This document shows positions 19,650 through 49,113 of a stretch of DNA of 64,000 bases, piece by piece. Under the pieces are notes generated by a model that saw nothing but the letters and a program-made list of their open reading frames with translations, made no database searches and was not told where the DNA came from. Source of the DNA: an uncultured Actinomycetota bacterium (GTDB lineage: Bacteria; Actinomycetota; UBA4738; HRBIN12). Made by a program: the position numbers and the translations under genes. How positions within the stretch are numbered: position 1 is the stretch's first letter; each line of letters begins with the position of its first letter. The stretch is from the NCBI GenBank assembly GCA_963746335.1, contig CAVVAK010000004.1, positions 530,825 to 594,824 on the forward strand, written 5' to 3'.

Positions 19650-20772
19650 GTGCGCATCGCCCAGGTGGTACCCCGCGGCGAGCAGCCATGGTCGGGTGTG
19701 CTGACGGTCATCGTGCACCTCGCGTCGGCACTCGCCCGACGAGGCCATCAGGTGGATGTCTGGCAGTTGCATCGATGGTCGCCCGACGTGTACCGGGAGC
19801 AGCAGCGGCGGCTGGAGGCGGCCGGGGTCGCCCAGGTTCCACTGCTGCCGACGAGGCGGCTCGGCCCCGCAGCGGCGTCGTTGGCGAAGGAGCGCCAGAT
19901 CGACGTGGTCCACCTCCACGGCGCCTTCAATCGGTCCAACACCGCGGTTTCGCGGGCGCTTCGAGGCCCGTACGTGTTCTCCCCGCACAGCGGGTACGAC
20001 CCCGTGTCACTGACCCGCGGACGCGGCAGGAAGCTCGTCTACCGCGTGCTGTTCGAGCGAACGATGCTGATGCGCGCGGCGCTCCGGGTCGCCCTGACGA
20101 ACCAGGAGCTCGGACAGCTGCGCGCCGTGGGCGTGACCGGACCCATCGAGGTGATCCCCAACGGCGTCGAGGCGGCCCCCGACGATCTCGACCGCGACGA
20201 CGTTCCGTCACGAGCTCGGACTGTCGGCAGATCCCTTGCTGGCGGTGTTCGTCGGTCGTCTCGACGTCCACCGCAAGGGACTCGACGTGCTCGTCCGTGC
20301 GATCGCCGCGGCCCCGCCCTGGCATCTGGCCCTCATCGGTCCCCGGTTCCGAGATGTGGATCGCCTCGAGAGGATGATCGCGGACCTGGACACCGGCGAT
20401 CGGGTCCACCTCGTGGGAGAACGCCATGGTCGAAGCTTGCAGGAGAGCGTGGCCGCGGGGGACGTATTCATGTTGTTGTCGCGCTGGGAAGGGCTCCCCA
20501 TGGCACTGCTGGAGGCCCTCAGCCTCGGGAAGCCGGCGATCGTCAGTACGGTCGTCGAGCCATCGGTCGGCGTCGAAGCGGCCGGTGCGGGCTGGGCCGC
20601 GGACGAAGGTGAGGTTGCGCCGCTGCTGCGCGATCTCCAGGATCGAGGGAGAGGCGAACTGGTCCGCCGCGGCGCGGCAGCGCTCGGGCTGTCGAAGAGA
20701 TACGACTGGGATCTCGTTGCGGAACGGTACGAATCCGCGTATGAACGAGCACTCGGATCGGATAGCGGGTGA
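19650..20772 (+). pseudogene. GT4 glycosyltransferase interrupted by one +1 frame break near 20202-20206 (true pseudogene or sequence error)
   Basis: N-terminal half, from GTG 19650: VRIAQVVPRGEQPWSGVLTVIVHLASALARRGHQVDVW. At ...LDRDDV the sense continues one base downstream as FRHELGLSADPLLAVFVGRLDVHRKGLDVL...LLSRWEGLPMALLEALSLGKPAIVS, the classic GT4 C-terminal half. Confidence 0.75.
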
Positions 20773-22348
20773 CGTGGTGAACGAACCGGTGCTCGGCGAG
20801 ACGCCAGACGCCGGTCACGACCCGAGGCAGGAACACGCTTCCGCCGTTGTGTCCCGCTACCACCCGTGTCCGAGATGGCTGGCACTCACGTTGATCGTCA
20901 CCGCCGCTCTCGTCTTCGTCGCCTGGCTCTTCCTGGCCGCAGCGCACATCGACGACCGGTACCAGCTCGATCATGTGTCCGGTGCCCGGATGGCCCTGGC
21001 GCAGTCCTTCGATCGCGGCACGCTCTATCCCGAGCTGTACGACGGTCGGACCTACGGGGGCACCAGGTTCATGCCGCTCCCGATCGTGCTCCACGGTCTG
21101 ACGGCCCGAATGACGGGCGAATACCTCGTCGCAGGCAAACTCCTCGGTTACGCGGCGACGCTCGGTCTCCTTGCGACCATGATGATCCTCCTGCGGCGCG
21201 GCCGGTGCCCGCTCCCCTATGCCCTGATCCTCGCCGCCCTCGTCCTGACGACGTCGACGGGATCCGACGGCTCGATGAACATGCGCGCCGACGTCCTGCC
21301 GCTCGTCCTCCAGGTACTGGCTGTCTGGATCGTCGCGAGCACGCCCCGTCCCGCCGCCACGATGGGCGCGGCCGCTCTGGCTGCCCTTGCCCTCGTTTCG
21401 AAGTTGAGTGCCGTGTGGGCGCCGGTCGCGATCGTCATCTGGCTGCTTCGGCGCGATCGGAAGCGACTGGCGGTGTTCTCGTCCGCGTACGTCGCGATCT
21501 CTGGAGCGCTCCTGCTCCTGTTCATCGGCCTCAGTGACGGACGGTTGGTCGAGAACGTCTTCGGTCTGTCCACATCGGGCATCACGGGCCTCCGATCGAT
21601 CCTGCTAGCGCCGTACCGATCGATGCACCTGCTGGTCGGGGAGGCGACGGCCGCCTGGGCCCTGATCCCGCTCGCCGGTCTCGCCGCGTGGGTCGCGATC
21701 AAGGACCGGCGGGGGTCCATCTATCAGGTGAGCTTGCTCTGTGCGACGGCGGTCCTTCTGATCGTGCTCACCGACGTCGGGACCGGTGGGAACCAGCTGA
21801 TCGACATCGTGGTACTGATCGCGCTCGTGGTCGGGGAGTTCGCGGCTCGGGTGCGGGCCGGCGTGCCGCGGATCGGACCGGCGGCGCCGGTGCTGGGGAC
21901 GGCCATCGGGCTCGTGTTGCTGTGGGCGACCTTCAGCGGGTTCATCGTCACGCTCGCCCCGGAGTTGGAGGCGATGGTCAGCGCCGAGGCGTCGTTCACG
22001 AAGACACCCTTGTCGGGCCTCGCCACGTCCCACACGTCGGTGCTCTCCGAGGATCCCTACGTGCCGATCTCACTCGGTCAGGTGCCCGTCGTGCGCGATC
22101 CGTTCATGCTGCCCAGGTTGGCCCAGCGGCAGCCCGACGCCGTCCCCGACCTCATCGATCGGATCGAGGACCAGGAGTTCGACCTCGTCATCCTGGTCGA
22201 ACCTCTCGAGCCCCTCGATCGCACCTGGTGGAGCGAGCTCGATCTCGGCACTCCGGTCGTGCAGGCGATCTCGCGCGCGTACTCGTACTCGGGGAGGGTC
22301 CAGGGCTATCACGTGTACGAGCCGCGTGAGGAGGGTTCCCTGCCGTGA
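20741..22348 (+). CDS. polytopic membrane protein (GT-C-like candidate)
   Basis: More than 10 TM segments after WLALTLIVTAALVFVAWLFLAAA. An early loop, GARMALAQSFDRGTLYPELYDGRTYGGTRFMPLP, is reminiscent of ArnT/PMT-type first periplasmic loops. Start at ATG 20741, or GTG 20774 just after the GT4 stop. Confidence 0.6.
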   Translation: MNEHSDRIAGDVVNEPVLGETPDAGHDPRQEHASAVVSRYHPCPRWLALTLIVTAALVFVAWLFLAAAHIDDRYQLDHVSGARMALAQSFDRGTLYPELYDGRTYGGTRFMPLPIVLHGLTARMTGEYLVAGKLLGYAATLGLLATMMILLRRGRCPLPYALILAALVLTTSTGSDGSMNMRADVLPLVLQVLAVWIVASTPRPAATMGAAALAALALVSKLSAVWAPVAIVIWLLRRDRKRLAVFSSAYVAISGALLLLFIGLSDGRLVENVFGLSTSGITGLRSILLAPYRSMHLLVGEATAAWALIPLAGLAAWVAIKDRRGSIYQVSLLCATAVLLIVLTDVGTGGNQLIDIVVLIALVVGEFAARVRAGVPRIGPAAPVLGTAIGLVLLWATFSGFIVTLAPELEAMVSAEASFTKTPLSGLATSHTSVLSEDPYVPISLGQVPVVRDPFMLPRLAQRQPDAVPDLIDRIEDQEFDLVILVEPLEPLDRTWWSELDLGTPVVQAISRAYSYSGRVQGYHVYEPREEGSLP

Positions 22349-23631: not shown

Positions 23632-23702
23632 TCCGGCTCGGGGGATCGCCGGGACGCGTATCCTGACCTCCTCGCACGATCGCGGAATCGGGAGCATCGG
23701 AC

Positions 23703-25617: not shown

Positions 25618-26258
25618 CGTCCAGGCGTGCACCGATGAACGCAGGCAAGGCAGCTCGGAAGGGTGCGTTCGTGCTGATCGTCGGGCCCGACGGCACGGGC
25701 AAATCGACGCTCGCCCAGGGACTGGTGGATGCGACGAGACACGAGTTCCCGCATGTGATCCACATGCATTGGCGCCCCGGCTTGCTGCCTCGACCCGGCG
25801 GTCTCGTCGGGATCGAAGCCGGCGATCCGACCGATCCGCACGCGCGAGAGCCACACGGATCGTTCCTCTCTCTGCTGTTGCTCGCGTACCACTGGCTCGA
25901 CTTCTTCCTCGGGACGTGGCTGCGGATCGTGCCGGCCAGATCACGGGGAGGCTTGGTCGTGATGGAGCGCGGGTGGTTGGACATCGCGGTCGACCCGCGG
26001 AGATATCACCTCGCGCTCCCTCGGAAGCTCGTGGAGCGGCTCGGACGCCTCCTCCCCGCACCGGACCTCGTGGTCGTTCTCTACGCGGAGCCCGAAGCTC
26101 TAACCCGACGGAAGGCAGAGCTTCCCACCCAGGAGCTCTCCAGGCAGATGGCGCGCTGGCGTCAGATCACGTTCCCAGCCCGCACGACCAGGTTGTTCCT
26201 GGATGCCTCCGAGAGTGCGGATCGACTCCTCGAGCAGGTGAGTCGCGCGGTGCTGTAG
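25608..26258 (+). CDS. P-loop NTPase, thymidylate-kinase-like fold; function unknown
   Basis: Walker [20 protein letters not shown]. No other motif recognised. Start at ATG 25608 (10-nt overlap with uxs) or ATG 25635. Confidence 0.55.
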
Positions 26259-26320
26259 TCTCCAACCTTCCTCGGCTACCGCCTTGAGCCACTCCCCCCG
26301 ACGTCGATACGTGGAGGCGT

Positions 26321-27860
26321 ATGGCATATCCGAGACCCGGTCTGGTTCGGATCTTCACGCTCACCACGTTGGTCATCGTGCTCACACTGGGTCTGAGCGC
26401 CATGCCGGCGCCCGCCCTCTCAGCACCCCAGGGCGCCACGACGCGTGCCGTGCAGTCGGCGATCAGGGCTCAGATCCTCGCGAGGTGCGGGCCGACGAAC
26501 TGTCTCCCGGCCGTGGGACCCCGGAGGGGCATCGGGTGTCCTTCGGGATCCGTCAGACTTCGACCCGGACGGCGTCTTCAGGCCGCGATCGATGCGAAGC
26601 CCGGGGGGACAGCCTTCTGCTTCAGGGCGGGGACCTACCGCCTGAGGCGCCCGCTCCTCCCGAAGAGCCACGACGTGTTCGTTGGGCAGTACGGCGCGGT
26701 CCTCAAGGGATCGAAGAGGGTCACGGACTGGACGAAGCGGGGGGCCTATTGGGTAGCGACCGGCCAATGGCAACAGAACGAGGTGGTGAGCGGCGTGCCG
26801 TGTCAAGCGGGCATCGAGTGCAACCGTCCGGAGGGCGTCTTCCTCGGGAACAGGGCACTCGTCCAGGTGCCGACCCTTTCCGCGGTCCGGACGGGACGGT
26901 TCTTCTTCGACTATCCGCGTGACAGGATCTACATCGCGGATGACCCCCGTGGCAGGCGCGTCGAGGCCTCTATCGCCGAGGGCGCATTCCGGGCGACCCA
27001 TCATCCTGCACGGGGCGTGGTCATCAAGAACCTGATCATCGAGAGGTTCGCGAACCCCAGCCGAACCGGCGTGATCTTCAACACGAACGACCCGGGGTGG
27101 GTGGTCGCCAACAACGAGATCGCCATGAACCACGGCATCGGGATCCTGCACAACGACGGAGCGACGATCAGGAACAACCACATCCATCACAACGGCCAGC
27201 TCGGCGTGAGCGGATACCGGTCGGCCGGAGTCCTCGTTCTCAACAACGAGATCGCGTGGAACGCGATCGGCGGCTTCGCGGGCTGGGAAGCGGGCGGTGC
27301 CAAGTACGTGGCAACCACCGGACTCACCATCAGTGGCAACTACGTCCACGACAACCGGCATCACGGCTTGTGGACCGACACGGACAACGTGAACACCCGA
27401 TACGTGCGCAACACCGTCGTGCGCAACAGGGGAAGTGGCATCTTCCACGAGAACGCCTACGGTTGCGTCATCAGAGGCAACTACATCGCCCGCAATGGCG
27501 GCGGACGGCATCCTCCTCAGCTCCTCATCGAACGTGGAGGTGTTCGAGAACTCCGTGGCACTCAATCGTGACGGGGGGATCCACCTCTTCATCGACGGCG
27601 CATCGGGTCATGACCTATCCGACAACTCCATCCACGACAACGTGATCAGGATGCGTGACGGAACCTCCAACGGCATCACGACGATGAACGTGACCGATCC
27701 GCTCAGCTACTCCATCTCGAAGAACAACAGATTCAGAGGGAACTCCTACGTCGTGCCGCGGCTTCTGCAGCCGTACTGGTACTGGGAGGACACCCCGAAG
27801 ACATGGCACCAGTGGCAAGTCGCGGGTCAGGACCTCACCGGCACGATCCGCCTGCCCTGA
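26321..27860 (+). pseudogene. secreted right-handed beta-helix (PbH1 repeat) protein with one +1 frame break near 27497-27507
   Basis: Signal/TM segment IFTLTTLVIVLTLGLSAMPAPALSA. Repeated coils: NNEIAMNHGIGIL, IRNNHIHHNGQLGVSG, VLNNEIAWN, ISGNYVHDNRHHGLW, VRNTVVRNRGSGIF, IRGNYIARNG. The sense then continues in the next frame as DGILLSSSSNVEVFENSVALNRDGGIHLF...NRFRGNSY. Confidence 0.7.
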
Positions 27861-28010
27861 CGCGGCCTGTCCTCGTGTACTCCGCTGGGCTTCCCCGGAT
27901 GGGCCGCTGCGTAGTCGAGTCCAGGCCCGCCTATCGGGATAGTTACGCATCAAGAATCAACTCTCCTCGGCCGATGAAAGGGGGACAGCCAGAAGGGGAG
28001 AGAAGCGGTC

Positions 28011-29796
28011 ATGAGGGACTTTTCGCCGAGTGTTCCAGAGTGGATCTTGCTCTCCGAGGCCGCCTTCCTCACCGGCGAAAGCGAAGCATCGATCTTGGAG
28101 CTCGTTCGCTCGGGACGGATCGAAGCCCGGCAGGTCGAGAAGCACGACGCGGATCCGAGGCTCCTCCTCCTTCGAGCGAGTGATGTCCAAGACCTCGAGC
28201 GGCTGCGTTCTCTCGACGGAGAAGTCTTCAGCTTCAGCCCCGAACAGCAGAGCCCGGCCCTCGAAACGCGAGCAGCCGTCCACACCCCGTATCGGATCTC
28301 CGTAGGTCGCTTCGCGGCGGCTGCCGCGGTCATCGTCGTCTTGATCGCCAGCAGCGTCGGACTTCCCACCGGCATCTCCCAAGCGGTCGATGTCCTGTTC
28401 GTCCGCGGCACCAAGGTGCAGAAGCCTCGACCGACATGCAAGGGAACCAGCGCCAGGTGCGCGCCCCTGCCCAACCCGATCCCGTCGCCAAGTCCGACTC
28501 CGTCTCTCAGTCCGTCGCCGAGCCCGAGCCCATCACCCAGCCCCTCATCGAGCCCGAGCCCTTCGCTCAGTCCGAGTCCGAGTCCGAGTCCGAGTCCGTC
28601 GCTGAGCCCGAGCCCGTCGCCGAGACCGAGCCCGTTGCCAAGCCCGTTGCCGAGTCCCCCGCCAACCGGGAGCCTCGGTCGGGGACCGGAGGCGGCGATC
28701 ACCTGTCCCGCCGGGGCCGTTGCACATCGCTCCCGGCGCGAGCATCCAGAACGCGGTGAACGCGAATCCTGCGGGAACAGCCTTCTGTCTGGGCGACGGC
28801 GTTCACCAGGTTCCTTCACCGATCACGCCCAAGACCGGCGACAGCTTCACGGGCGAGTTCGGCGCGGTGCTCGATGGGACCGGCACGGCCTTCAGAGCCA
28901 CCCACAACTTCGAAGGTCTCATCAACGCGCACAACCAGAACATCGACGACGTGACCATCCGCAACTTGGTCATCCGTGACTCGGCCAGAACGCGGCGTAT
29001 CCACGCCTACCAGGACTATTCGGATGGATGGGTCGTCGAGAACAACGAGTTCGTGAACAACGGCATCGGCCATCTCCCATGGCAATACCTTCCAGATCCG
29101 CCGCAACCTCGTCCATGACAACTGGCAGTACGGCATCGCTTGCTACACAGTGCCATGGCTCCGTGATCGAGGACAACGACTTCTCATTCAACGCTTCCCG
29201 TCGTTCCGAGTTCCCCGGCGACGCCGGCGCGTCGAAGTGGATGGCCGCGCCGAACACCGTCGTCCGCGACAACAACTTTCATGACAACTATGGCTCGGGC
29301 ATCTGGTTCGACTTCGATAACTGCGGCCATCCTGATCGAGGGCAACCGCATCACCGACAACCAGGGCAGCGGCATCTTCTACGAGATGAGCGGCCAGGGC
29401 ATCATCCGCAACAACGTGCTTGCGCGGAACAGTCGCGAAGACATCTATCTGTCGGAAGCCTCGGGCGTGGAGGTCTACGGGAACACCGTCGAGACCCTGA
29501 AGAAGGGCATCTCCCTCTTCATCGACATGTCTCGCGGCTACGCTCTCCAGAACAACTTCATCCACGACAACAGCGTGACCGTCTTGCCGGTTTCGGGAAC
29601 ATGGGCGGTCGGGATGACGTGTCTGAACATGACATCGTCCAACTGCTTCAACTACCACACGAGCCACAACAACCGATTCGAGCGGGGCGCCTACGACGTT
29701 CCTAACCCCGCGGCAGACTATTGGTTCGTCGGCAACGCTCGGCAATTCCCGGGATGGCAGTCGCTCGGATTCGATCCCACCGGGTCGGTTCGCTAG
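28011..29796 (+). pseudogene. HTH (excisionase/MerR-like) - TM - Ser/Pro linker - beta-helix protein; paralogue of 26321..27860, with four +1 frame breaks
   Basis: ATG 28011 is preceded by GGGGAGAGAAGCGGTC (SD-like). HTH-like WILLSEAAFLTGESEASILELVRSGRIEARQV; TM VGRFAAAAAVIVVLIASSVGL; (SP)n linker. ITCPAGAV|HIAPGASIQNAVNANPAGTAFCL aligns with the paralogue IGCPSGSVRLRPGRRLQAAIDAKPGGTAFCF. Frame breaks by my reading are at about 28722, 29071, 29144-29157 and 29328. Confidence 0.65.
28464..28664 (+). repeat. low-complexity Ser-Pro coding repeat, including 5x AGTCCG at 28569..28598
   Basis: Encodes LPNPIPSPSPTPSLSPSPSPSPSPSPSSSPSPSLSPSPSPSPSPSLSPSPSPRPSPLPSPLPSPPP. The perfect hexamer run AGTCCG x5 is visible in the DNA. 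Confidence 0.9.
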
Positions 29797-29996
29797 CCGA
29801 GTAGGTCGCTTCGAGAGATCACGTCGCCCTCGACCGTGACGGCTCAGCCTTAGCCAGCCGCCCCGGCCAGGATAGGGGAACCCCCAGAGCCGCCTCGTCG
29901 ATCCGCCACCCATCAAGACAGCCTGCTCTTGCGTAGCGTGGTCGGCTTGCGGCACTATCGGTTCTCTATGCGAATGGTATCGGCGGGCGGAGGCGC

Positions 29997-30854
29997 GTGG
30001 TGTTCCTGGCAACGAGGATCAAGAGAAGGTGGTCAAACACCACGGCTATCGCGCGCTTCATCTGGACCCACCCGGCGAATCAAGGCCGACGCCTTCGCCA
30101 ACTTGTTCGATCCGCTGCGTTCGAGATCGATGGCCGCTACTTCCGTCGGCGGCGGCGCCTGATCCGCGTTGGTAGATCGCGGATGTGGGCGGATCACGCC
30201 TTCGACAGCTCAGTCTTCGCCTTCCATGGATGGCCCGTCAATTGGAACGACATGCACGCGTGGCGCCGGCATCTCCAGCCAGGAGATCTGTTCGTTGACG
30301 TTGGCGCCAACATCGGCGCGTACACGCTGTGGGCTGCGGAGGAAGGAGCCGAAGTCATCGCCGTTGAGCCGAACGGTCCAGCATGCGATCGACTTCGGGA
30401 GCACATCGAGCTCAATGATTACGTCGACAAGGTAACCGTCATCTGCGCCGCTGCCGGGGCGGCTCCAGGAGTTGCGCGGATGACAGACTCATTCGATTCG
30501 GCGAACCACCTGATCTTCGACGACGGGGAAGGGGACGTCCGTGTCGAGACCATCGATGAGATCGTGGGAAGTCGACCGATCGCTGGGATGAAGGTCGACG
30601 TGGAGGGCGCAGAACGCCTCGTCCTGCAGGGTGCAGAGCGAGCGTTGAAGGAACAACGGGTCGGCTTGCTCCAATTGGAATGGAACGCGCTGTCCCGGGA
30701 TCTTCTCGGGGAAGATCGGACTCCGGTGGCAGACCTCCTGCGAGAGAGTGGATACGGGTTCTTCTATCCAGACGAGAGCGGGTCATTGCACCCGGTGTCG
30801 GAGCCCGCTTCCCATCCGGGAGCACGCGACGTATTTGCGGCTCCCATCGCCTGA
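29997..30854 (+). CDS. FkbM-family SAM-dependent methyltransferase
   Basis: LFVDVGANIGAYTLWAAEEGAEVIAVEPNGPACDRLREHIELN and MKVDVEGAERLVLQGA are the Methyltransf_21/FkbM signature. Confidence 0.85.
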   Translation: MVFLATRIKRRWSNTTAIARFIWTHPANQGRRLRQLVRSAAFEIDGRYFRRRRRLIRVGRSRMWADHAFDSSVFAFHGWPVNWNDMHAWRRHLQPGDLFVDVGANIGAYTLWAAEEGAEVIAVEPNGPACDRLREHIELNDYVDKVTVICAAAGAAPGVARMTDSFDSANHLIFDDGEGDVRVETIDEIVGSRPIAGMKVDVEGAERLVLQGAERALKEQRVGLLQLEWNALSRDLLGEDRTPVADLLRESGYGFFYPDESGSLHPVSEPASHPGARDVFAAPIA

Positions 30855-31135
30855 CTCGGAAGCTGGCGCCAGGGCTCGGCGATCTTGGACGAGGTCATGC
30901 CCTCAGATCTGCCAGTTCGTCCATGTGCGACTGACTGAGAGATCTCTAGGCGGCTGCTGACGAAACGCGACGAGCTCAAGGAGCGAGAAGTTCCTCGAGG
31001 AGTGTCATACGCCTCGTTCTCGGTCACCCCTCTCGATCTGAAGGCGAGTGGTAGGTTTGTTTCATTGATGCTCGCCCCAGTTTCCGATTGCTCCACGTGT
31101 GCTCCCGCGACGACACATGAGAAGCCGCGTGCAGC

Positions 31136-32254
31136 GTGGAGCGACCCATCACATGGGAATCAGCCTTGAGGATCGTTCACTACTACCCGCGCGCATCTGT
31201 GGGAGATGGAGGATGTTCATATGCAGTACGCGGGTGGGCAGCTGCCGTCGCCGGTACGGGAGCGCAGGTTGTCGTCGCGTTCGATCGGCTTGGAGAGCAT
31301 CCAGAGGCCCCGGGAGTTCAGTGGGAACAGGTGCCACATCGACGACGCGGCGGACTTCGCTCCGTTGATGCCCTCAACGATGTGGTGATCGGCGCGGACT
31401 TCCTGGTGCTTCACTCAGGGTGGGTCTATCACAACGTGCAAGCCGCCAAGATCGCTCGCGGATCCGGGGTCCCCTACGTCCTCACGCCTCATGGCGCCTA
31501 CGACCCGAACCTGATGCGGAGACGGAGGGTGCTGAAGCGCCTCTGGTGGACGCTCCTGGAAGAGGAGCTCGTGTCTCATGCGGCGGCCATCCATGTCTTC
31601 TACGAAGAGGAACGCGCCCTCCTTGCGGGTCTCGGTTACGCCGGCAAGGTGATCGTCGCCCCCAACGGCGTGACCATCCCGGATCTCGCCGCGGATGGGG
31701 GAGCGACGAAAGACTACGTCCTGTGGATGGGTAGATTCGACATCGAGGTCAAGGGGATCGATCTCCTCCTCCGCGCACTGGCGTCCCTGCCGGCAGATAC
31801 CCGGCCCCCGGCACGGTTGCATGGCCCGGATTGGCGCGGTGGCAAGCGACAGGCGATCGAACTCGTGCGCACCCTCGGGCTCGAGGGATCAGTCACGATC
31901 GGTCCTCCTGTTTACGGGGCGGACAAGTGGGATACCCTGAGCAATGCTCGTCTCTTCGTCTTTCCATCCAGGTGGGAGGCGCAAGGTATCGCCGCTCTAG
32001 AGGCAGCTGGCATCGGAGTGCCGGTGGTTGCGACCGGCAGTACGTTCCTCGGGCGCCAGCTCGCCAGGGAGGGCGCTGCCCTACCCGCTGACGACAACGC
32101 TGAAAGTATCGGCTCTGCCTTGATGCGGGGTTGGTCTTCGGACACGACATCGATAGGACTGAACGGTTCTCGGCTCGTGAGAGAAGTGTTCTCATGGAGT
32201 GCGGTTGCCGATAGCTATCTTCGACAACTCGAGCCCATCCGTGATGAGATCTGA
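31136..32254 (+). CDS. GT4 glycosyltransferase
   Basis: LRIVHYYPRA...GG, MGRFDIEVKGIDLLLRAL, LFVFPSRWEAQGIAALEAAGIGVPVVAT. The real start is probably TTG 31166 (L-RIVHYYP). Confidence 0.8.
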   Translation: MERPITWESALRIVHYYPRASVGDGGCSYAVRGWAAAVAGTGAQVVVAFDRLGEHPEAPGVQWEQVPHRRRGGLRSVDALNDVVIGADFLVLHSGWVYHNVQAAKIARGSGVPYVLTPHGAYDPNLMRRRRVLKRLWWTLLEEELVSHAAAIHVFYEEERALLAGLGYAGKVIVAPNGVTIPDLAADGGATKDYVLWMGRFDIEVKGIDLLLRALASLPADTRPPARLHGPDWRGGKRQAIELVRTLGLEGSVTIGPPVYGADKWDTLSNARLFVFPSRWEAQGIAALEAAGIGVPVVATGSTFLGRQLAREGAALPADDNAESIGSALMRGWSSDTTSIGLNGSRLVREVFSWSAVADSYLRQLEPIRDEI

Positions 32255-33044: not shown

Positions 33045-33084
33045 TTCTTGAGGGGTCACCCGAAGCGCAATGCGACTCGGAACC

Positions 33085-35552: not shown

Positions 35553-35666
35553 TACCGGTTTCCTGCCCAGCCAGTTCCCAAGCAGACTGAATCACCAGGA
35601 CCCACCTCAGCCTCACGCTCGTCACGAGACATCCCTGAGCGACCTATCCCTTCTGATGGAGCGTCT

Positions 35667-37139: not shown

Positions 37140-37153
37140 TCGTGCTCTCGCCT

Positions 37154-38408
37154 TCAGCCCACGATGCCGTCGATGGTTGATGCTGGCGCCTCGGGACCTG
37201 CTTGAAACGTCTTGGACGAGACCCGCTCCTCATGTACCTCGAAGAGATGAGGCAGGCGCGTCTCGAGAAGCTTACGTATGCGCGCGGCGCTGCTGTCGAT
37301 GTCGGGGTGTGCGTGGATCGGAGCATGGGCAGCATCCCTCACGGTCTGTGCGAGATCGGCAACGGTTCTCGACACATCGGTCGGGATGACTCCCGTTCCC
37401 CCGATCTCGGGTGGTCCTCCGCGATGCAGGCACACGACGGGCAAACCCGCAGCCAGGGCTTCCGCTACGACGAATCCGCCCTCGTCGTGGATGCTGGGGA
37501 AGAGAAGCACATCCTGCTTCGCCACGCATCAGCTCCTCAACCCGAGAGTCAGAGATCCATCCGAGGAACCGCACGCGATGCTCCACGCCCAGTTTCCTGG
37601 CGAGGCGCTTCAGGCGTGGCCGGTCCGAGCCGCTTCCGCAGATGATCAGGGCCCATCCATCGAGTTTCACCAGAGCGCGGAGCGCCAGAGCCACTCCCTT
37701 CCAGGGGAGCAGGCGTCCCACGAACAAGGCTGTTGGTTGTGGCCGACGCGGCGCGGCGCGTGCGATCGGTCGCGGCCGATCAAGGACCACGTGCGGGAAG
37801 ACGACCGTCTTTTCCTGATGCCGGGCAGGGAGCCACGTACGGGTCTCGGGATTCTGCACCAAGATCAGATCGGCGCGCCACCAGGGCAGTCTGGCCAGCG
37901 GATTGGCATACCGAGCGACGGCTCGCGCGGAAGCCCGCGCCGCCTCGAAGATCGCACCGCGGATGCCGAGCACGCTGACGAGGTTCCAATCCATCCCCAC
38001 GCCCCCACCGACGGGTCCATAGATGAATGGACGACGGAGGAGAGGTGCGAGCGCCCCCAGCCATGCGTTCGCCCATGTCAGATGCCAGACCACATCGAAG
38101 GAGACACCTCGGGAGAGAGCACGTGCTCGCCGGAGGGCGGCCACCTGCCAAAGGAGGTAGTAGAGCCTCGCGCCCTTGGCCCCACGCTTCCAGGAGCGCG
38201 CCCGCTCCGGCAGGTCGACGTATTCGAAGTGCAGTCTCCCCTTCTCAGGGACTTGCGGAAGAGCCGCCTCGATCACACTTCTGTTGCTCTCTCGAGTGAT
38301 CACCCACACCTCAGCGAAGCGGGCAAGCATGCGCGACCAGATCCATCCGGCTCCGGGCTCCGACCCCTTGTCGGGTTCACACGCATACGCGAATACGAGC
38401 ACACGCAT
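37154..38408 (-). pseudogene. GT4 glycosyltransferase with one +1 frame break near 37520-37526
   Basis: MRVLVFAYACEPDKGSEPGAGW...ALFVGRLLPWKGVALALRAL...RVEELMR| then the next frame reads AKQDVLLFPSIHDEGGFVVAEALAAGLPVVCLHRGGPPEI. Confidence 0.75.
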
Positions 38409-38491
38409 CTGCTGAGCCTCTCACACGGCGTTGAGCAGGGATACGGACCTTTGGTCGTCCTTCAGGGCGAGGCTGGAGACCCGCTGGAGAG

Positions 38492-39433
38492 CTAGGGTCC
38501 CAACCGGCCCAACATCTTGGTGCGGACGCGTGCGCCACGCTTCGGGCCCTCCGGATCCGACGTGGCCATGCTGATCCGAAGGTATTCACGCAGGAAGTGC
38601 GAGCTCTCACGCGCGTCGACCTTCGAGCCGGCGGCATAAGCCCCGATGGCCGCTCCCACCCATCCCTTCCCCTTCAGCCCGTCCAAGATCGTCTGAGTAA
38701 GAGGCCTTCGCAATTCGGAGTTCGACTGGACCAGGTAGTGGAAGAGGTCGTAATAGGGTGGGGCACCCGTATGGGAACTCTCCCAATCCACCAACCCCCA
38801 TTCGCGCTCCGTCGGGATGAGGTTCCACGGCGCGAAGTCCCCATGCGCGACGCCGCTCGTCCCGCCATCGACAGAGGTTCGATCGAAGAAGGTCCCAAGC
38901 GCGAACGCCACGTCCTCCGGAAGTCGCCATGGGGATGCCCGGGGCCGCCAATCGATGGCCTTGAAGACCAGCACACCTTCGGAGTGATCCAGCAACGTCG
39001 GCGGGAGCAACGGTGGTGGGAGCAGCGATCCGGACACTTCTATGGAGTCTTTCTCCTTCGAGAGGGCTCCGGCGCCTACGGTGTCTCTTGCCACCTTCAC
39101 GAACGCCACCGGTGTCCCATCCTGCTCGAAGACGAGCGCTAGGAACCGGCCGGGATGATTCGCTCTCGCCACCGCAAGTCCACCGCCCCGGGGAACGAGG
39201 GGACCCGCCGCCTCCCACACTTCCCTGGGTATGAGGCCGAAGCCTCGGAGGAAGCGGAATGCCCCTTGACCGGCGAGGGCACGGGCCATCTCCCAGCCGA
39301 TGCGGCTTCGAAACGTCACCGGGAAGTAGACGGAGAGGCCTGCCCCCGCGTGCGTCGGCGGCTGCCTCGGAAGGAACCACCGCGGCGAACGCCACCATGG
39401 CAGCGCCACCCAATCGGGGCCGGGGTCAGGCAC
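38492..39433 (-). CDS. aminoglycoside-phosphotransferase/choline-kinase-like (APH family) kinase
   Basis: GVAHGDFAPWNLIPTEREWGLVDWESS matches the HGDxxxxN...D catalytic/Mg loop of APH-fold kinases. GTG start. Confidence 0.7.
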   Translation of the reverse strand: MPDPGPDWVALPWWRSPRWFLPRQPPTHAGAGLSVYFPVTFRSRIGWEMARALAGQGAFRFLRGFGLIPREVWEAAGPLVPRGGGLAVARANHPGRFLALVFEQDGTPVAFVKVARDTVGAGALSKEKDSIEVSGSLLPPPLLPPTLLDHSEGVLVFKAIDWRPRASPWRLPEDVAFALGTFFDRTSVDGGTSGVAHGDFAPWNLIPTEREWGLVDWESSHTGAPPYYDLFHYLVQSNSELRRPLTQTILDGLKGKGWVGAAIGAYAAGSKVDARESSHFLREYLRISMATSDPEGPKRGARVRTKMLGRLGP

Positions 39434-39841
39434 CGTGTTCGGGACCCACCCAGTTGCATGAAGGCCCGACGAGTCGCCCGTAGAAGACGTGATCCTTCAC
39501 AGCCACCCTAGCGACTCGGCGAGCGCACCGGAGACGCCGCGATCCGCAACCTGACATGGGGAACTTGTGGCTCCCTCGCCGGGGAATGTTCTCAGGGCTC
39601 ACGATCACATGGTAGACGCCTCGCTGACGCTGAACGTCATACGCGTGCCACGTGAGGACTCTTATGGTGCGAAGGAGATCGTCAGGGCGACTGAGTTTCG
39701 GATACGCCGCGGTCTCTCTCGAGAGAGCCCTCTGGTCCTCATGTAGCATTGCATCCGCGGCGAGCGGCACCACCGACACGGATCATGTAGTTCGGAGGCG
39801 AACCAGGATGGTTCTGAGGGGCAGGCTAGCCGTACCCAGGA

Positions 39842-40990
39842 TTGGCCGATCTCTGTTGGGGACAAGATGTGGCACCGTGGGATCCCGTGCTCAAGCCCCA
39901 TAGACTCGGCATCTGGCCGACGCTTCCACCAACCAGATGGAGGCGGAAGTCATCCCCGTTGCCGTTCCCGTTAGAGGAACCGGGCTTCCGCTTGTATTCG
40001 CGCGCGCGCCACGGCCTCTGGCAGGGAGTGGGAGCACTCGGCCTCGGCCAGGGCGACTCGGTGCTCGCGCCCGCCTACCATCATGGATCCGAGATCGAGG
40101 CCCTCCAAAGAGCCGGGATCCATTGCCGCTTCTACGAGGTGGATGAGGATCTGCAACCCGATGAAGGCCGTCTTGAGGAGTTGCTGAGCCCGGATGTCCG
40201 AGCCCTCTACTTGATCCACTACTTCGGCGTCCCTCAAGCCGCAGACAGGTGGCGGCAGTGGTGTGATCGACACGACCTTCTGCTCATCGAGGACGCAGCG
40301 ATGGCCTTCCTCGCAAGCTGGGATGGTCGTCCTGTGGGGTCGTTCGGCGATCTCGCGATCTTCTGCTTGTACAAGTCCTTCGCTCTCCCCGATGGCGGAG
40401 CGGTGATCTGTTCGGCCCGATCGATGTCGGGGCCAAGGAGAGCTCCAAGGGCTTCGGGTCTACGCAGCTCGATGAGGCGAACAGGTTCGTGGCTCGAGCA
40501 ACGATCGAGCTTCGTGTCGACCCTTCATGGGATGGTCGACGGAGATCTCGAGCGGGAATGGGACCCGGACTTGAAGCTTGGAGATCCTTCTACTCCCGCG
40601 GCGCGGATGACGAGCGTACTCATCCCTCGACTCGTGGACCCGGCGGCAGCGGAGCGTCGTCGATCCAACTACCGCTTCCTCGAGGGAGAGCTTGGTGATC
40701 GATTGCATCCCTTGTTCTCATCCATCCCGGACGGCGCCTCCCCGGCCGCTCTCGTATTCCGAATGGACGGCGATGAACAACGCAGGGCTCGTAGCGAGCT
40801 CCGCCAGCGCGGAGTACGGCTCGACAACTTCTGGTTGACACCTCATCCGTCTGTACCAGATGAGGGATCCGAACGTTCGCGATCCTTTCGATCCTCCGTT
40901 GTTGGCTTGCCCGTGCATCAGGAGCTGAGGGACGTGGATCTGGAACAGATCGTGACGTCCGTGAAGGCTTCGCTCCGAACGTCGGTCTAG
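39842..40990 (+). CDS. DegT/DnrJ/EryC1/StrS-like PLP-dependent aminotransferase
   Basis: VLAPAYHHGSEIEAL, LLLIEDAAMAFLASWDGRPVGSFGDLAIFCLYKSFALPDGGAVI (candidate PLP lysine in YKSF). The true start may be downstream of 39842. Confidence 0.65.
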   Translation: MADLCWGQDVAPWDPVLKPHRLGIWPTLPPTRWRRKSSPLPFPLEEPGFRLYSRARHGLWQGVGALGLGQGDSVLAPAYHHGSEIEALQRAGIHCRFYEVDEDLQPDEGRLEELLSPDVRALYLIHYFGVPQAADRWRQWCDRHDLLLIEDAAMAFLASWDGRPVGSFGDLAIFCLYKSFALPDGGAVICSARSMSGPRRAPRASGLRSSMRRTGSWLEQRSSFVSTLHGMVDGDLEREWDPDLKLGDPSTPAARMTSVLIPRLVDPAAAERRRSNYRFLEGELGDRLHPLFSSIPDGASPAALVFRMDGDEQRRARSELRQRGVRLDNFWLTPHPSVPDEGSERSRSFRSSVVGLPVHQELRDVDLEQIVTSVKASLRTSV

Positions 40991-41021
40991 GCACCCGAAT
41001 CCTGTCCCGGCATGTCCGTGT

Positions 41022-42185
41022 TCATCGGCGGGCTCGAAGGCGTCCCCGGATGGCCTTCAGGCGCCGCAGGGCGCGTGGAGATAGTCGTCGGGATGCCATC
41101 TGCCGGATGACACGCGCTTTCGTTGATGTGTGAAGAGCGACCACGGTGAACTGCGTGCGGAGAAGACGTCGCGACCGTGGGGCAAGGTCGACGTTTTCTA
41201 CCGCGTCCTCTCCGTCGGCGAACGTGTACTTGTAGTTCTGTCCGCCAGGACCGAGGTCCACCACTCGATCACCGACTGTCCACGCGTGCTGGATGGCAGC
41301 CCGGACAGTTTCGATGGCGGGGCCATAGGGAGCCCAGCGAGGATCGAAGCCGCCGAGCCAATACGAGAGCGTGCCGCCCGCTCCTACGAACAAGTGCGAA
41401 CTGACCGGATCTCCTCCCGCCTCGATCGACCAAAGACGGAGTCGACCCAACGGAGCCAGTTGATGTGCAGCGTCGGCCAACATCGCTTCGATGCGAGGGG
41501 TGAGAACGCCGGAGCCTCCTTTCCTCTCCCAGCGCTCGTGATGGAGCATGGCAAAGTCACGAAGTCCCGCCACGACCTCCTCCTCTGATTCCGCCAATCG
41601 AGCCACGGCGCCACGCTCCTCCAGACGTCTCCTGCGTCGTCGGAACTCCGCGCGACGATGTCGGCTGAGGTCCGCGAACCAGTCGTCGTAGGTTCCGTGC
41701 TCTAGCGTGAGGCGAGGAGCCCGCATCCGAGAACCCCTCCAGACCCGAGCGCCTCGCGGTGAGACGTCGCCGACCCCCAGCAAGGCCGGCCATGGCGAAC
41801 CGACGGGCAGCCCGTGGAAGGAGATCACGTCAGCGGTGGGGCTCCCGGCAGCCAGTGCCTCTGAAGCGAGGGAAGCGACCTGAGGCTCGGATCCAGCTTT
41901 GGCGAGGGGTTCTGTGTTAGCCGCGATAGTCGACGCGAGCAGTCGATACCTAACGATCCCAACGCGGGTTCGCTCCGCGAAGAACGGCAGGACGCCCGCG
42001 AGCTCATCGTCCTCCCACACCGCGACGATCCTCAGCGTGGCCCTGCGCGGCCGAGCCTGCCGCCACCATGCCAACATCCAGCCCGGCGACGAGAAGGGGC
42101 GAGCTCGCGCGACGGCAAGAGCATCCCACCCGCCCTGGAGGGACTCCGCCGTACTGAGCTCGTCGATCACCTGGGTACGCCACAT
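41022..42185 (-). CDS. GNAT-fold acyltransferase, CelD/BcsL (FemAB-like) family
   Basis: N-terminal LQGGWDALAVARARPFSSPGWMLAWW and C-terminal SYWLGGFDPRWAPYGPAIETV...VDLGPGGQNYKYTF follow the Acetyltransf_6/CelD pattern. Confidence 0.7.
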   Translation of the reverse strand: MWRTQVIDELSTAESLQGGWDALAVARARPFSSPGWMLAWWRQARPRRATLRIVAVWEDDELAGVLPFFAERTRVGIVRYRLLASTIAANTEPLAKAGSEPQVASLASEALAAGSPTADVISFHGLPVGSPWPALLGVGDVSPRGARVWRGSRMRAPRLTLEHGTYDDWFADLSRHRRAEFRRRRRRLEERGAVARLAESEEEVVAGLRDFAMLHHERWERKGGSGVLTPRIEAMLADAAHQLAPLGRLRLWSIEAGGDPVSSHLFVGAGGTLSYWLGGFDPRWAPYGPAIETVRAAIQHAWTVGDRVVDLGPGGQNYKYTFADGEDAVENVDLAPRSRRLLRTQFTVVALHTSTKARVIRQMASRRLSPRALRRLKAIRGRLRARR

Positions 42186-44352: not shown

Positions 44353-44405
44353 GCGAGCAGCGCTTCCGACCACGTCGCGCCGTCAGGAGGGATACGCTTC
44401 GCGCC

Positions 44406-46037: not shown

Positions 46038-46112
46038 ACCCACTCGGACCCGTGTCCGTACCCCTACCGTCGCGGAAGGACGCGCCTTCCGCATCGAGGG
46101 GAGGACGATCAC

Positions 46113-46568: not shown

Positions 46569-46586
46569 GCATCCACGGTTCGTGGT

Positions 46587-46612
46587 GTCGGCGGCCCGAA
46601 CGGGCCGCCGAC
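46587..46612 (+). terminator. GC-rich hairpin just after the CHRD gene (putative intrinsic terminator)
   Basis: GTCGGCGGCCC-GAAC-GGGCCGCCGAC: a perfect 11-bp stem with a 4-nt loop, 19 nt after the stop at 46568. It is followed by CCACCCTTATCC, only a weak T tract. Confidence 0.5.
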
Positions 46613-46632
46613 CCACCCTTATCCTTGACCGT

Positions 46633-47283
46633 GTGGATGCCGTCCTGCTCGACCTCTACGACACGCTCGTCCGCACCCGCTGGGGACAGCTCTCCGAGCG
46701 CATCACGGCGGAGCTCGGCATCGAGAAAGCCGAGCTCTTCCGCGCCTACGACGTGACCAGGGCGGCCAGGGGAGTCGGCACCTACGGGAGCGTCGAGGGC
46801 GACATGACCGCGATCGTCGAGGCGGCGGGCCTCGACCCGGAACCTGCGTTGCTCCAGCGGCTGTTGGTCATGGAGCGTGAGTTCTCCGCCACGGGAGTCG
46901 AGCTCTGGGAGGACTCCCTACCGGTCCTGCGGGAGCTTCGCGGGCGCGGCGTCAGGTCGGCCCTGATCAGCAACTGCTCTCATTCGACGAGACCCATCGT
47001 CGACCGTCTCAAGATCGCCGAGGAGTTCGACGAGATCCTGCTGTCGTTCGAGGTCGGGTTGCATAAGCCGGATCCCGAGATCTACCGGGAAGCGCTCCGG
47101 CGCCTCGGCGACGTCGCACCCGGACGCACCGTGTTCGTGGACGACCAGCCGGCCTACTGCGACGGGGCAGCGGCCCTCGGGATCGAGACCTTCCTGATCG
47201 ACCGCTCGGGCGACGGCACGCCGGATCTCAACGGTCACCGGGTGATCCCGGACCTCCGCCCGTTGCTATCCGTAGGCGCCTGA
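46633..47283 (+). CDS. HAD-superfamily hydrolase
   Basis: VDAVLLDLYDTLV (DxDxT-type motif I), SNCS (II), VFVDDQ (IV). GTG 46633 is preferred over 46582 because the hairpin at 46587..46612 sits in the longer N-terminus. Confidence 0.8.
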   Translation: MDAVLLDLYDTLVRTRWGQLSERITAELGIEKAELFRAYDVTRAARGVGTYGSVEGDMTAIVEAAGLDPEPALLQRLLVMEREFSATGVELWEDSLPVLRELRGRGVRSALISNCSHSTRPIVDRLKIAEEFDEILLSFEVGLHKPDPEIYREALRRLGDVAPGRTVFVDDQPAYCDGAAALGIETFLIDRSGDGTPDLNGHRVIPDLRPLLSVGA

Positions 47284-48127
47284 GCCGGACCCAGCCCCGG
47301 CGTCGGCCAGCGCCTTCGTCATGTCCGTCACCTCGGAGGGGCGGGGGATCTCGATGTCGACCGGCTCGCCGAAGTTCGAATACTCCACGGTCATCTCCAT
47401 GAGGGCTTCCTCGGCCCCCGGGACGAGCTTCCCGAAGTCCATGCTGATCCGTTGCCGGCGCGGCAGTCCCTCTCCGTCGATCCAGATCTCGAACGGGATC
47501 TTCTCGCCGACCCCGAGCGACTCGAACTGTTCCACCACCATGCCGAGCTGCTCCTTGGTCGCGGCGTCGACGTCCTTGCTGACGGCGTCGGTGAAGCCCT
47601 CGAGCACCTTCTTCAGATCGAGCGTGCCCACGTAGTGCGTCGTAGAAACCCCCTGGAGCTGCTGCTCCCCGGAGTCCTTCACGTCGAACACGCCGGCGAA
47701 CAGGCCGATGTAGGCTAGAGGGATCCGTGGTGCCGGTCCCGAATCCGCCGAACTGCGCGGCGGCGGCCGGATCCATCTTCGACGGATCCATGCTGACCCA
47801 GTCCGTCCCGGCGTCTTCGAAGACCGGCGACCGCATGTACACCACGCCGTCGTCCATCAGCAGCTGCATCTCGCCGCCGAGCATCCCGAGGTCCATCGTC
47901 ATGTCGATCCGCTTGTGTGCGTTGTCCACGTCTGCCTCGCCCGAGAAGGAGAGTTCCTCTCCGGCCGCCGACACCGACATCTCGAGCTCCTGGTGGAGGG
48001 TCTCGACCTCGTAGACGGCCTTCATGGCGTTCAGCACGGCGTCTCTCGGGTTGACGGGAGAGGAGCCTTCGGCACAGGCCCCGAGGAGGACGCTCGAGAC
48101 GGCGAGGGCAGCCAGCAGTTTCTTCAT
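47266..48127 (-). pseudogene. lipoprotein (LolA/LppX-like fold suspected) with one +1 frame break near 47712-47720
   Basis: MKKLLAALAVSSVLLGAC is a lipobox. ...AQFGGFGTGTTDPSS| then the next frame reads YIGLFAGVFDVKDSGEQQLQGVSTTHYVGTLDLKKV... Confidence 0.65.
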
Positions 48128-48161
48128 GAGGCCATCATCGGCAGGAAACACCGGACTGCAG

Positions 48162-49113
48162 TCAGTGGCAAGAACCGCTTCCGCGGTCGGTGAACGTGGG
48201 CTGGCCCTCTGCGGAGATCCACTGATAGACCCATCCGTGGGGCGCAACAGAAAGATCGAGGAACCCGAACGCCTTCGACTGCCCTCGGGCGAAGATCTCG
48301 GGACGCGTGTGGAAGTTCCCGAAGTCGTTGAGATTCCGGCCTCCGGTGCCGACCACGAACTGGGTGAGCCCGCGGTCGGGATCGAAGCGGCCTTGCTGGT
48401 CGGCCGGCTGCCAGCGCGAGTAGTTGTGGTTGTGGCCCGTGAGCACGAGGTCGGCATCGTGTGCGTACAGCAGGTCCCAGAGGGGCTTCGACCTCAAGAG
48501 CTCGTAGTCGTTCGTCCAGTCGGCGTTCTGGTACTTGAGCCAATCCCACCGGGGGTGATGCCAGAACGCGAGCGTACAGAGGGCGTCGCTGTTCTCCAGG
48601 TCCTGGGCCAGCCACGAATGCTGAGGCGACCCGGCAAGGCATGCCAGGCCCCCCGCGCGGCAGATCGTCGAGTCGAGGGACACGATGTGCCATTCCCCCA
48701 GGTCGAAGGAGTAGGAGCTGGCCGGGGCGAGCGCGCCGAAGTAGCGGAAGTAGCCGGCGGCGCCGGGGTCGCCGTACTCATGGTTACCGGGCGCGGGTGC
48801 CGTGGTCGGGAGGAGGTCGCCGAAGTACACGTCGAAGTTCTCGACGAAGTCCTCGTAGATCCCGTACTCGTACTGGATGTCGCCCAGGAGCAGCACCTTG
48901 TCGTAGTTGCCGCGCCCCGATGCCGGCCGCCACGTCGTCGTACTGACACACGCTCCGGTTCATGGCCGGGGGGTTCTTGCACGCGATGTCGCCGACGGCC
49001 GCGATGCCGCGGGATCGTGGTCCCGGCCTGGGCGGACGCGGCTCGATCGAGCGCGCCCACGACACCGCGAGCGCCAGTACGGCCAGCATCGAGACGAGGG
49101 CGGTGCGTCGCAT
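48162..49113 (-). pseudogene. secreted metallophosphoesterase with one +1 frame break near 48908-48915
   Basis: MRRTALVSMLAVLALAVSWA...IAAVGDIACKNPP...QYDDVAAGIGA| then the next frame reads GNYDKVLLLGDIQYEYG...APGNHEYG...LTGHNHNY (calcineurin-like motifs GD, GDxxY, GNHE, GHxH). Confidence 0.7.

Follow-up and report, generated by a model that had tools for sequence, protein, structure and literature searches.

Single-base frame breaks in cell-envelope genes of an uncultured Actinomycetota assembly: probable residual consensus errors

Eight genes within a stretch of 64,000 nucleotides from an uncultured Actinomycetota bacterium (the whole stretch being referred to as the window) are interrupted by fourteen single-base reading-frame breaks, all located between positions 19,650 and 49,113. 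These breaks are very probably residual single-base consensus errors of a long-read metagenome assembly and not pseudogenes, and the sequence comparisons given below suggest that all eight genes are most probably intact in the organism.

Placement of the frame breaks

A preliminary description of this DNA had listed thirteen breaks, and all 13 were found to be present in the sequence, at most 16 nt from the positions given there. The direction claimed for them was also upheld, with twelve being +1 breaks (one surplus base) and one a −1 break, a 12:1 split with a two-sided binomial P of 0.003. A fourteenth break, which had not been listed, was detected as a further +1 at the end of a glycosyltransferase gene (~34,420–34,432), bringing the local tally to 13:1. 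Shifts were placed using a frameshift-aware dynamic-programming aligner, together with DNA alignments and Pfam model continuity. Eleven of the breaks were checked against intact orthologues in the genomes G003 and G015 and on a JGI metagenome contig (L041). The break of GT4c is based on Pfam model coordinates and that of bh1 on Pfam and a distant homologue. Same-strand frame switches without a stop were also called genome-wide with a self-built codon-usage HMM. The features concerned are listed below, with the positions of the preliminary description in brackets.

19650–20772, plus strand: GT4 glycosyltransferase GT4a; one +1 break, at 20199 (20202)
26321–27860, plus strand: right-handed beta-helix protein 1 (bh1); one +1 break, at 27503 (27500)
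28011–29796, plus strand: beta-helix protein 2 (bh2); four +1 breaks, at 28722–28725 (28722), 29071 (29071), 29147 (29150) and 29328 (29328)
33085–34419, minus strand: Wzx-type O-antigen/teichoic-acid flippase; two +1 breaks, at ~34022 (34010) and ~33490 (33506), placement ambiguous by ~12–16 nt
34416–35552, minus strand: GT4 glycosyltransferase GT4b; one −1 break, at 34714 (34710), and two +1 breaks, at 34563 (34570) and ~34,420–34,432 (unlisted)
37154–38408, minus strand: GT4 glycosyltransferase GT4c; one +1 break, at ~37515–37528 (37523)
47266–48126, minus strand: LppX/LprAFG-like lipoprotein; one +1 break, at 47717 (47715)
48162–49113, minus strand: calcineurin-like metallophosphoesterase; one +1 break, at 48913 (48911)
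25671–42185, no strand assigned: polysaccharide-biosynthesis island of lower GC (62–64%), with 11 of the 14 breaks
25671–26252, 29997–30854, 31151–32251 and 32244–33041, and wzy at 35670–37139: intact members of the island

Every break was found to consist of exactly one surplus base (in one case one missing base) between codons conserved with the intact orthologues. Removal or addition of this single base restores full-length proteins collinear with the intact orthologues, as judged from orthologue alignments and Pfam continuity. The comparison with the orthologous regions of relatives, which had been suggested earlier, showed the orthologues in G003, G015 and L041 to be unbroken at every comparable site. 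The context CGGCCATC, reported for two of the bh2 breaks, is indeed common to 29071 and 29328. The surplus bases had also been described as usually adjoining a short doublet of G or C; this applies to some sites, but most of the surplus bases are not homopolymer extensions.

For the three broken genes flanking the island, the surplus base was located at the DNA level. GT4a shows a Glyco_transf_4 N-domain in frame 0 and a Glycos_transf_1 C-domain in frame 1 and is present as two pieces in the assembly studied here (G000), its orthologue in G015 being intact (417 aa, 95% amino acid identity). Across the DNA alignment of GT4a with G015 (96% identity), the sole indel is the extra G at 20199 (GACCGCGAC[G]ACGTT). 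The phosphoesterase/lipoprotein pair was missing from the syntenic site of G015 and G003 was used as the DNA reference instead. The lipoprotein gene reads TC[T]AGCC in G000 versus TC-GGCC in G003, with the remaining indels in the gene being −6 and +6 (90% identity). The metallophosphoesterase, also in two pieces in G000, is found in a single open frame covering query residues 1–316 in G003 (88% identity), G021 (82%) and G008 (82%), and DNA alignment pinned the extra base as GGGGC[G]CGGC versus GGGGC-CGGC in G003.

In bh1, Pfam NosD positions 91–154 are matched in frame 2 and positions 128–207 in frame 0. The +1 at 27503 (GGCGGC[G]GACGGC) was placed by frameshift-aware alignment to a 402-aa beta-helix protein of L041 which is only 36% identical. 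The protein bh2 carries a helix-turn-helix-like segment at its N-terminus as well as a linker rich in Pro and Ser, and the same four +1 shifts were obtained from alignment to its paralogue bh1 and to its L041 orthologue. This orthologue is intact (570 aa, with 70% identity over 566 aa and zero stops), and the segment identities past the first break are 85%, 92%, 80% and 79%. The four insertions lie within at most ~600 bp, and other damage is absent. A plain tblastn search of bh1 against bh2 read through short out-of-frame pieces and was replaced by the frameshift-aware aligner. A possible break at 26914 in bh1 was dismissed due to poor N-terminal alignment, and HMM switches at 28425 and 28704 lie in the low-complexity Pro/Ser linker, the net result being the single +1 at 28722–28725.

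The joined Wzx has 495 matching proteins, those listed being mostly full-length (420–470 aa), and the best among the matches listed shows 73% identity over 96% of the query. Frameshift-aware alignment to the Wzx of L041 covers query residues 6–427 of 430 with 73% identity and zero stops, with segment identities of 72%, 76% and 71%. For GT4b, Pfam Glycos_transf_1 positions 16–103 are matched in one frame and 98–144 in the next. Alignment to an intact GT4 of L041 (378 aa, 75% identity, zero stops) recovered both the shift at 34714, where a codon is one base short, and that at 34563. The additional +1 at the end of GT4b causes its TGA stop to be missed. This TGA overlaps the TTG start of wzx (TTGA), and the boundary from TACCGGAG to TTGA is 10 nt long in the window versus 9 nt in L041. 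For GT4c, translation places the surplus base as ATGCGT[G]GCGAAG; in three-frame translation '…RVEELMR' resumes one frame over as 'AKQDVLLFPSIHDEGG…', and Pfam Glycos_transf_1 positions 13–93 are matched in frame A and 91–157 in frame B.

The island, which is syntenic with L041, has the order P-loop protein, bh1, bh2, FkbM-type methyltransferase, GT4, 266-aa-like gene, wzx, GT4b, wzy and GT4c, followed by APH-like, DegT-like and GNAT-family genes. The broken genes are variable across the genus: the 26–30 kb stretch was absent from the 40 relatives against which it was tested, and GT4a is present in one of the 26 other genus members. A candidate break at 35762 in wzy was dismissed, as homology carries on in the original frame. 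The DegT-like ORF (39842–40990) has a Pfam match to only model positions 51–202 of 360, but its family-typical C-terminus lies in the same frame and it gave no evidence of a break.

The scarcity of breaks to the left of this region had been pointed out previously, and the codon-usage HMM, which is of limited sensitivity, revealed none in 1–19.6 kb or in 49.2–64 kb. It made a single call outside 19.6–49.2 kb, at 10005, and this marks an ordinary junction between genes at which a separate Met start is present. The clustering is real, with 9 HMM switches in this stretch where the density of candidates over the genome would predict 2.5 (P = 0.001).

Restored frames and genome-wide candidates

No in-frame stop was found in any restored frame. 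Purifying selection persists past the breaks, with pN/pS values of 0.20 upstream and 0.20 downstream for the lipoprotein and of 0.19 upstream and 0.09 downstream for the metallophosphoesterase. Per-segment identity to L041 is 64–92% for the broken genes and 66–76% for their intact neighbours. The signature of frameshift pseudogenes, namely relaxed selection together with mixed lesion types, was not found in the restored genes. The preliminary description had considered that, were the breaks real, the Wzx/Wzy locus would be decaying; the absence of a decay signal in these sequences contradicts such a putative decay.

Across the genome, the HMM gave 221 candidate switches with an insertion excess of 139:82, and a strict set gave 39:12 (binomial P = 2e-4); these counts have uncalibrated error rates, as only nine of the candidates were compared with curated models and the HMM misses a large part of the low-GC island. 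Among housekeeping genes, frame-joined purB (442 bits, cutoff 326), aroC (423, cutoff 321), hemW (292, cutoff 205) and miaA (169, cutoff 149) matched continuously across the junction and above the NCBIfam equivalog cutoffs. Frame-joined PDH-E1α also gave a continuous NCBIfam match, with 340 bits being below the cutoff of 394. The density of candidates was five times higher at local GC <0.64 and 2.5 times higher within 10 kb of contig ends, and candidates were over-dispersed (variance/mean 2.6).

No link to homopolymers was seen, the longest run averaging 3.34 near candidates versus 3.29 at random positions, and no k-mer was strongly enriched near candidates. GCGC was weakly over-represented around +1 candidates, with 111 occurrences versus 75 expected (Bonferroni 0.017). 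A CTAC(A) motif, considered as a sign of motif- or methylation-type systematic error, looked enriched when both strands served as background; with a coding-strand background the enrichment vanished and the motif was rejected, leaving only weak GCGC and CAGAC signals. The windows of −1 candidates showed an excess of GGGA/GGGGA resembling ribosome-binding sites, which was not significant after correction (Bonferroni 0.07). This excess suggests that many −1 candidates may be true gene boundaries, and the genome-wide insertion excess is therefore probably understated.

Origin of the breaks

The assembly consists of 10 contigs with an estimated completeness of 78.9%, and its nearest relatives are MFD long-read MAGs. 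The MFD MAGs are Nanopore-only and were assembled using Flye --meta --nano-hq with one round of Medaka (PMC12313526), and, judging from these relatives, the assembly studied here is most likely also Nanopore-only, from Flye and one Medaka polish. The MFD authors acknowledge Nanopore-associated errors at lower coverage (PMC12313526), and bins of <40-fold coverage require short-read polishing (PMC9262707). In three sister assemblies with few contigs and 70–77% completeness (G024, G008 and G004), conserved genes were likewise found broken into frame-shifted pieces, the positions being different.

The preliminary description had favoured systematic insertion errors, a reading with which the lack of decay, the presence of the same lesions in housekeeping genes, the enrichment in low-GC DNA and at contig ends and the variable nature of the genes all agree. 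Natural bacterial indel spectra reportedly favour deletions (Mira, Ochman & Moran 2001), and the 13:1 insertion excess is thus not predicted by mutation. It is proposed that the breaks are clustered because this DNA is strain-variable. The 19.6–49.1 kb stretch would represent strain-variable cell-envelope/polysaccharide DNA, for which each variant would have a lower effective read depth and a heterogeneous pile-up. The polisher may err more often there, and errors would cluster in the 30-kb stretch through low coverage or strain mixture. Classic Nanopore errors remove bases from long homopolymers. Here the sites are mostly outside homopolymers and insertions predominate over deletions, and the error mechanism is thus only partly explained; the missing homopolymer association weakens the case for a classic homopolymer error and leaves that for an artefact untouched.

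As to how such an artefact could arise, a strain-mixture chimera in which the consensus wrote both SNP alleles side by side is a tentative possibility, somewhat doubtful against plain low-coverage noise. Where the surplus base could be pinned, its neighbour is often an unlike base occupying a synonymous position (GC[G]C vs GCC, TC[T]A vs TCG and GCA[C] vs GCC; further sites of this kind read CGG[A] and GCT[C], or ATC[C]TTG vs CTT). A strain mixture would account for why insertions predominate, why they fall outside homopolymers and why they cluster in variable DNA, and is in line with the weak GCGC excess and with the reported use of MAG polymorphism as a proxy for microdiversity (PMC12313526). 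At no fewer than two sites, however, the surplus base forms a same-base doublet (GGC[C]ATC, seen twice), and those at 27503 (GGC[G]GAC) and 37523 (CGT[G]GCG) also adjoin an identical base. It should also be noted that the aligner forces shifts onto codon boundaries, and the third-position pattern is therefore partly built in.

Genuine pseudogenisation, with real frameshifts and the Wzx/Wzy locus, both beta-helix genes and the three flanking genes being lost, is very unlikely. The breaks do gather in genes that are accessory, vary between strains and could be lost without great cost, and broken and intact genes interleave as in a young pseudogene field. However, relaxed selection, nonsense codons, larger deletions and IS insertions are all absent, and the broken genes are as diverged as their intact neighbours. 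Under neutral decay, a single gene would be very unlikely to gather four independent insertions and no other lesion; purB, aroC, hemW and miaA carry the same type of lesion elsewhere in the genome, and the insertion bias opposes the bacterial deletion bias. That the surplus bases are real, through insertion-biased mutation or through a burst of very recent inactivation in variable envelope and some housekeeping genes, is extremely unlikely. Such a reading would place the inactivation in an uncultured soil Actinomycetota lineage and make it too recent for other signs of decay.

Programmed recoding, with in vivo read-through by +1 ribosomal frameshifting, four-base codon decoding or transcriptional slippage, could draw on the nearly uniform +1 direction and the full-length restored proteins but is effectively refuted and has next to no probability, as the four-base words differ (GACG, GGCG, GCAC, GGCC, TACA, ATCC, GCTC, CGGA, CGTG, TCTA and GCGC) with neither CGGN nor any other four-base codon common to the sites, homopolymer runs for slippage are absent, the 49 tRNAs (ARAGORN) all have ordinary anticodon loops, and the unbroken orthologues and the lack of a strongly enriched k-mer also stand against it.

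Consequences and comparison with known systems

From automated annotation, ~22 gene fragments are expected in place of the eight genes, in keeping with the earlier warning that annotation of this region would be badly fragmented. GT4b and Wzx would also seem to be fused, and the Wzx/Wzy locus would wrongly look as though it were dying. In the MAG as a whole, ~100 or more genes are probably split. Such splitting would depress the completeness estimate and would distort pangenome analyses, pseudogene counts and metabolic reconstructions, the last of which would appear to lack purB and aroC. From their sequences, the broken state of the eight genes is almost certainly no real biological feature and not a biological discovery. 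As assembly errors, the breaks would matter for annotation and quality control and not for biology, and their profile of non-homopolymer insertions in strain-variable DNA may be of use to polishers of long-read soil metagenomes.

The need for a +1 change of frame to give a full-length protein is shared with prfB-type programmed frameshifting, from which the breaks differ in having no conserved shift site, in being absent from orthologues and in affecting many unrelated genes. As in the frameshift pseudogenes of host-restricted or recently niche-shifted lineages, small indels interrupt ORFs whose homology is still recognisable; unlike in these, there is no relaxed selection, nonsense or large lesion, the insertion bias is opposite, and housekeeping genes are hit. 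The IDEEL test measures gene-call fragmentation caused by residual long-read indels (PMC9262707). The breaks differ from such consensus indels in being mostly non-homopolymer insertions that show strong clustering in variable DNA of lower GC. They resemble them in being single-base indels that split full-length genes, genome-wide and also in sister MAGs, with an apparent dependence on coverage and a lowered marker-gene completeness despite high contiguity.

Location and direction of the frame breaks

The preliminary description of this region reported thirteen single-base frame breaks in eight genes, twelve of them +1 (one surplus base) and one −1 (one missing base). In three-frame translation the protein sense carries on one frame over at each claimed coordinate, and Pfam objectively supports the joins in four genes. 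The N-terminal and C-terminal domains of the glycosyltransferase GT4a lie in different frames, the Glycos_transf_1 model is matched in successive frames at positions 16–103 and 98–144 in GT4b and at 13–93 and then 91–157 in GT4c, and the right-handed beta-helix gene bh1 matches NosD positions 91–154 and then 128–207. The breaks were also placed using a custom-written protein-to-DNA aligner with penalised frame moves, which forces shifts onto codon boundaries, with proteins of intact relatives as guides. The metagenome contig L041 (JGI 3300085380, Ga0679418_0006896) carries an unbroken, syntenic copy of the polysaccharide locus (window 25.6–37.2 kb) with 66–76% amino-acid identity.

Single-base breaks by gene (window positions)
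GT4a, 20199: one extra G (DNA alignment with a close relative)
bh1, 27503: +1 (aligner, L041 protein)
bh2, second beta-helix gene, 28725, 29071, 29147 and 29328: +1 each (aligner, L041 protein, 70% identity, 566 residues)
wzx, flippase gene, 34022 and 33490, minus strand: +1 each (aligner, L041 protein, 73% identity)
GT4b, 34714 (−1) and 34563 (+1), minus strand (aligner, L041 protein, 75% identity)
GT4b, last codons, 34416–34432, minus strand: +1
GT4c, about 37515–37528, minus strand: +1 (translation and Pfam)
LppX/LprAFG-like lipoprotein, 47717: one extra base (DNA alignment with the related genome G003)
Calcineurin-like phosphoesterase, 48913: one extra base (DNA alignment with G003)

The four shifts in bh2 were reproduced with the paralogue bh1 as guide. 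Across translation, Pfam, aligner and DNA alignments, all thirteen breaks were present within 16 nt of the positions first described and their direction was correct. The list was incomplete, however, as it lacked the one at the 3′ end of GT4b, and the tally is now fourteen, of which thirteen are +1. At the GT4b/wzx boundary, the distance from TACCGGAG to the TTGA stop/start overlap is 10 nt in the window and 9 nt in L041; due to the surplus base the TGA of this overlap is missed and GT4b runs into wzx, resembling one fused ORF.

Further candidate breaks at 35762 (in wzy), 26914 and 10005 were spurious. The Pro/Ser-rich low-complexity linker of bh2 (SPSPSP…, 28400–28720) misleads codon-usage frame prediction, and the switches called within it comprised two false −1 calls netting to one real +1. 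It should also be noted that the Pfam match of a DegT/DnrJ/EryC1-like ORF (39842–40990, plus strand) is limited to model positions 51–202 of 360; no break was demonstrated in this ORF, which has an odd, Arg/Ser-rich middle yet a family-like C-terminus in the same frame.

Conservation and gene content

The comparison with orthologous regions proposed in the preliminary description yielded intact orthologues in G003, G015, G021, G008 and L041. The GT4a orthologue of G015 is a single 417-aa frame with 95% amino-acid identity, and the phosphoesterase is unbroken in G003, G021 and G008. In the DNA alignments of GT4a, the lipoprotein and the phosphoesterase, all other indels in the coding regions are multiples of three. 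No in-frame stops occur in frame-restored bh1, bh2, wzx and GT4b aligned to the L041 proteins, and joined Wzx gave 495 protein matches, those listed being mostly full-length flippases of 420–470 aa. Segment identities to orthologues are 71–76% for wzx and 64–77% for GT4b, with 66–76% for intact neighbouring genes, and 79–92% for the bh2 segments after the first break. Against G003, pN/pS is 0.09 downstream and 0.19 upstream of the break in the phosphoesterase, and 0.20 on both sides in the lipoprotein.

The window has a GC content of 62–64% across 26–42 kb, below that of its flanks, and its 26–30 kb stretch has no counterpart among 40 related genomes. GT4a was found in one of 26 other genus members (G015), and the lipoprotein/phosphoesterase pair (47266–49113) is present in G003 at 90% DNA identity and absent from the syntenic site of G015; thus, even the high-GC flanks of this island represent variable gene content. 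In L041, the FkbM-type methyltransferase of the window (29997–30854) is replaced by a polysaccharide deacetylase, and the bh1-like gene is placed differently.

Frame breaks across the assembly

The assembly (G000) comprises 2.58 Mb at 68% GC in only 10 contigs, with an estimated completeness of just 78.9%; the window corresponds to C4:530,825–594,824. High contiguity with low completeness is the typical look of an indel-rich long-read metagenome assembly, and because G000 fits this, breaks were tested both locally and genome-wide. A 13-state codon-usage HMM (six frames in typical and atypical models, plus non-coding), in which a candidate was a same-strand frame switch with the old frame still open beyond it, gave 221 candidates, 139 of them +1 and 82 −1 (39 and 12 in a strict set). 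A GGGA/GGGGA excess at −1 candidates, ribosome-binding-site-like and not significant after correction (Bonferroni 0.07), hints that true gene boundaries inflate this class. Nine of the candidates were joined across the frames and compared with curated NCBIfam models; joined purB, aroC, hemW and miaA scored above equivalog cutoffs in one continuous stretch spanning the junction, and joined PDH-E1α gave a continuous match just below its cutoff.

Broken genes elsewhere in G000 (contig:position)
purB, C1:145273, single-base +1 break
aroC, C5:48127, single-base +1 break
hemW, C9:56026, single-base +1 break
miaA, C2:191362, single-base +1 break
PDH-E1α, C7:55918, single-base −1 break

It is implausible that a free-living actinobacterium would carry these five genes broken by a single base and otherwise perfectly conserved. 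A further candidate lies at C9:296374. Candidates are over-dispersed along the assembly, and their density rises about 5-fold at local GC below 0.64 and about 2.5-fold in the terminal 10 kb of contigs, a distribution which looks technical. Other hotspots are C1:1–30 kb, C10:330–381 kb and C4:450–480 kb, where candidates are mostly +1, and C2:240–265 kb; several of these hotspots lie at contig ends.

The closest relatives of G000 are "MFD…bin" MAGs, a series derived from Nanopore-only soil and sediment metagenomes by Flye assembly and one round of Medaka polishing, for which the authors acknowledged Nanopore-associated errors at lower coverage (PMC12313526); the same group found short-read polishing necessary for bins under about 40-fold coverage (PMC9262707). 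In other assemblies of the genus, G024, G008 and G004 (few contigs, 70–77% complete), conserved genes, namely those for a 677-aa protein and the phosphoesterase, occur in frame-shifted pieces at different positions, and the problem is therefore common to a class of MAGs.

Origin of the breaks

The breaks are very probably assembly or consensus errors. The suspicion raised in the preliminary description, of systematic insertion errors where coverage is low or the DNA variable, is supported by the lack of decay, the genome-wide lesions, their technical-looking distribution and the provenance. Real pseudogenes are improbable given this lack of decay and the same lesions elsewhere, including purB, aroC, hemW and miaA; moreover, four independent insertions within 600 bp of bh2, unaccompanied by nonsense codons or any further lesion, are not how a dead gene evolves. 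Recoding is scarcely credible and, to the extent that sequence can tell, is ruled out: the four-base words differ at all sites, none of which has a homopolymer or slippery run, orthologues are unbroken wherever a comparison was possible, the 49 tRNAs are all ordinary and no k-mer is strongly enriched.

As to how such consensus errors arose, most surplus bases do not extend a G or C doublet, and their earlier description as usually adjoining one was overstated. At pinned sites the surplus base often adjoins a synonymous position occupied by another base (GC[G]C for GCC, TC[T]A for TCG, GCA[C] for GCC, and CGG[A]), which suggests that the consensus of a strain-mixed pile-up may have written both alleles of a SNP. 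This would account for the surplus of insertions and for the concentration of breaks in strain-variable DNA, and the broken genes are variable within the genus; it is put forward as a hypothesis, since the aligner's codon-boundary placement bears on these contexts. The biological interest of the breaks is low, their practical use being an annotation and quality-control warning for G000 and its sister MAGs. Within 25 nt of genome-wide +1 candidates there are weak excesses of GCGC (111 against 75 expected, Bonferroni 0.017) and CAGAC (13 against 3.4 expected, Bonferroni 0.048), and no homopolymer excess. The insertions lie in non-homopolymer context, which differs from the textbook signature of Nanopore errors.
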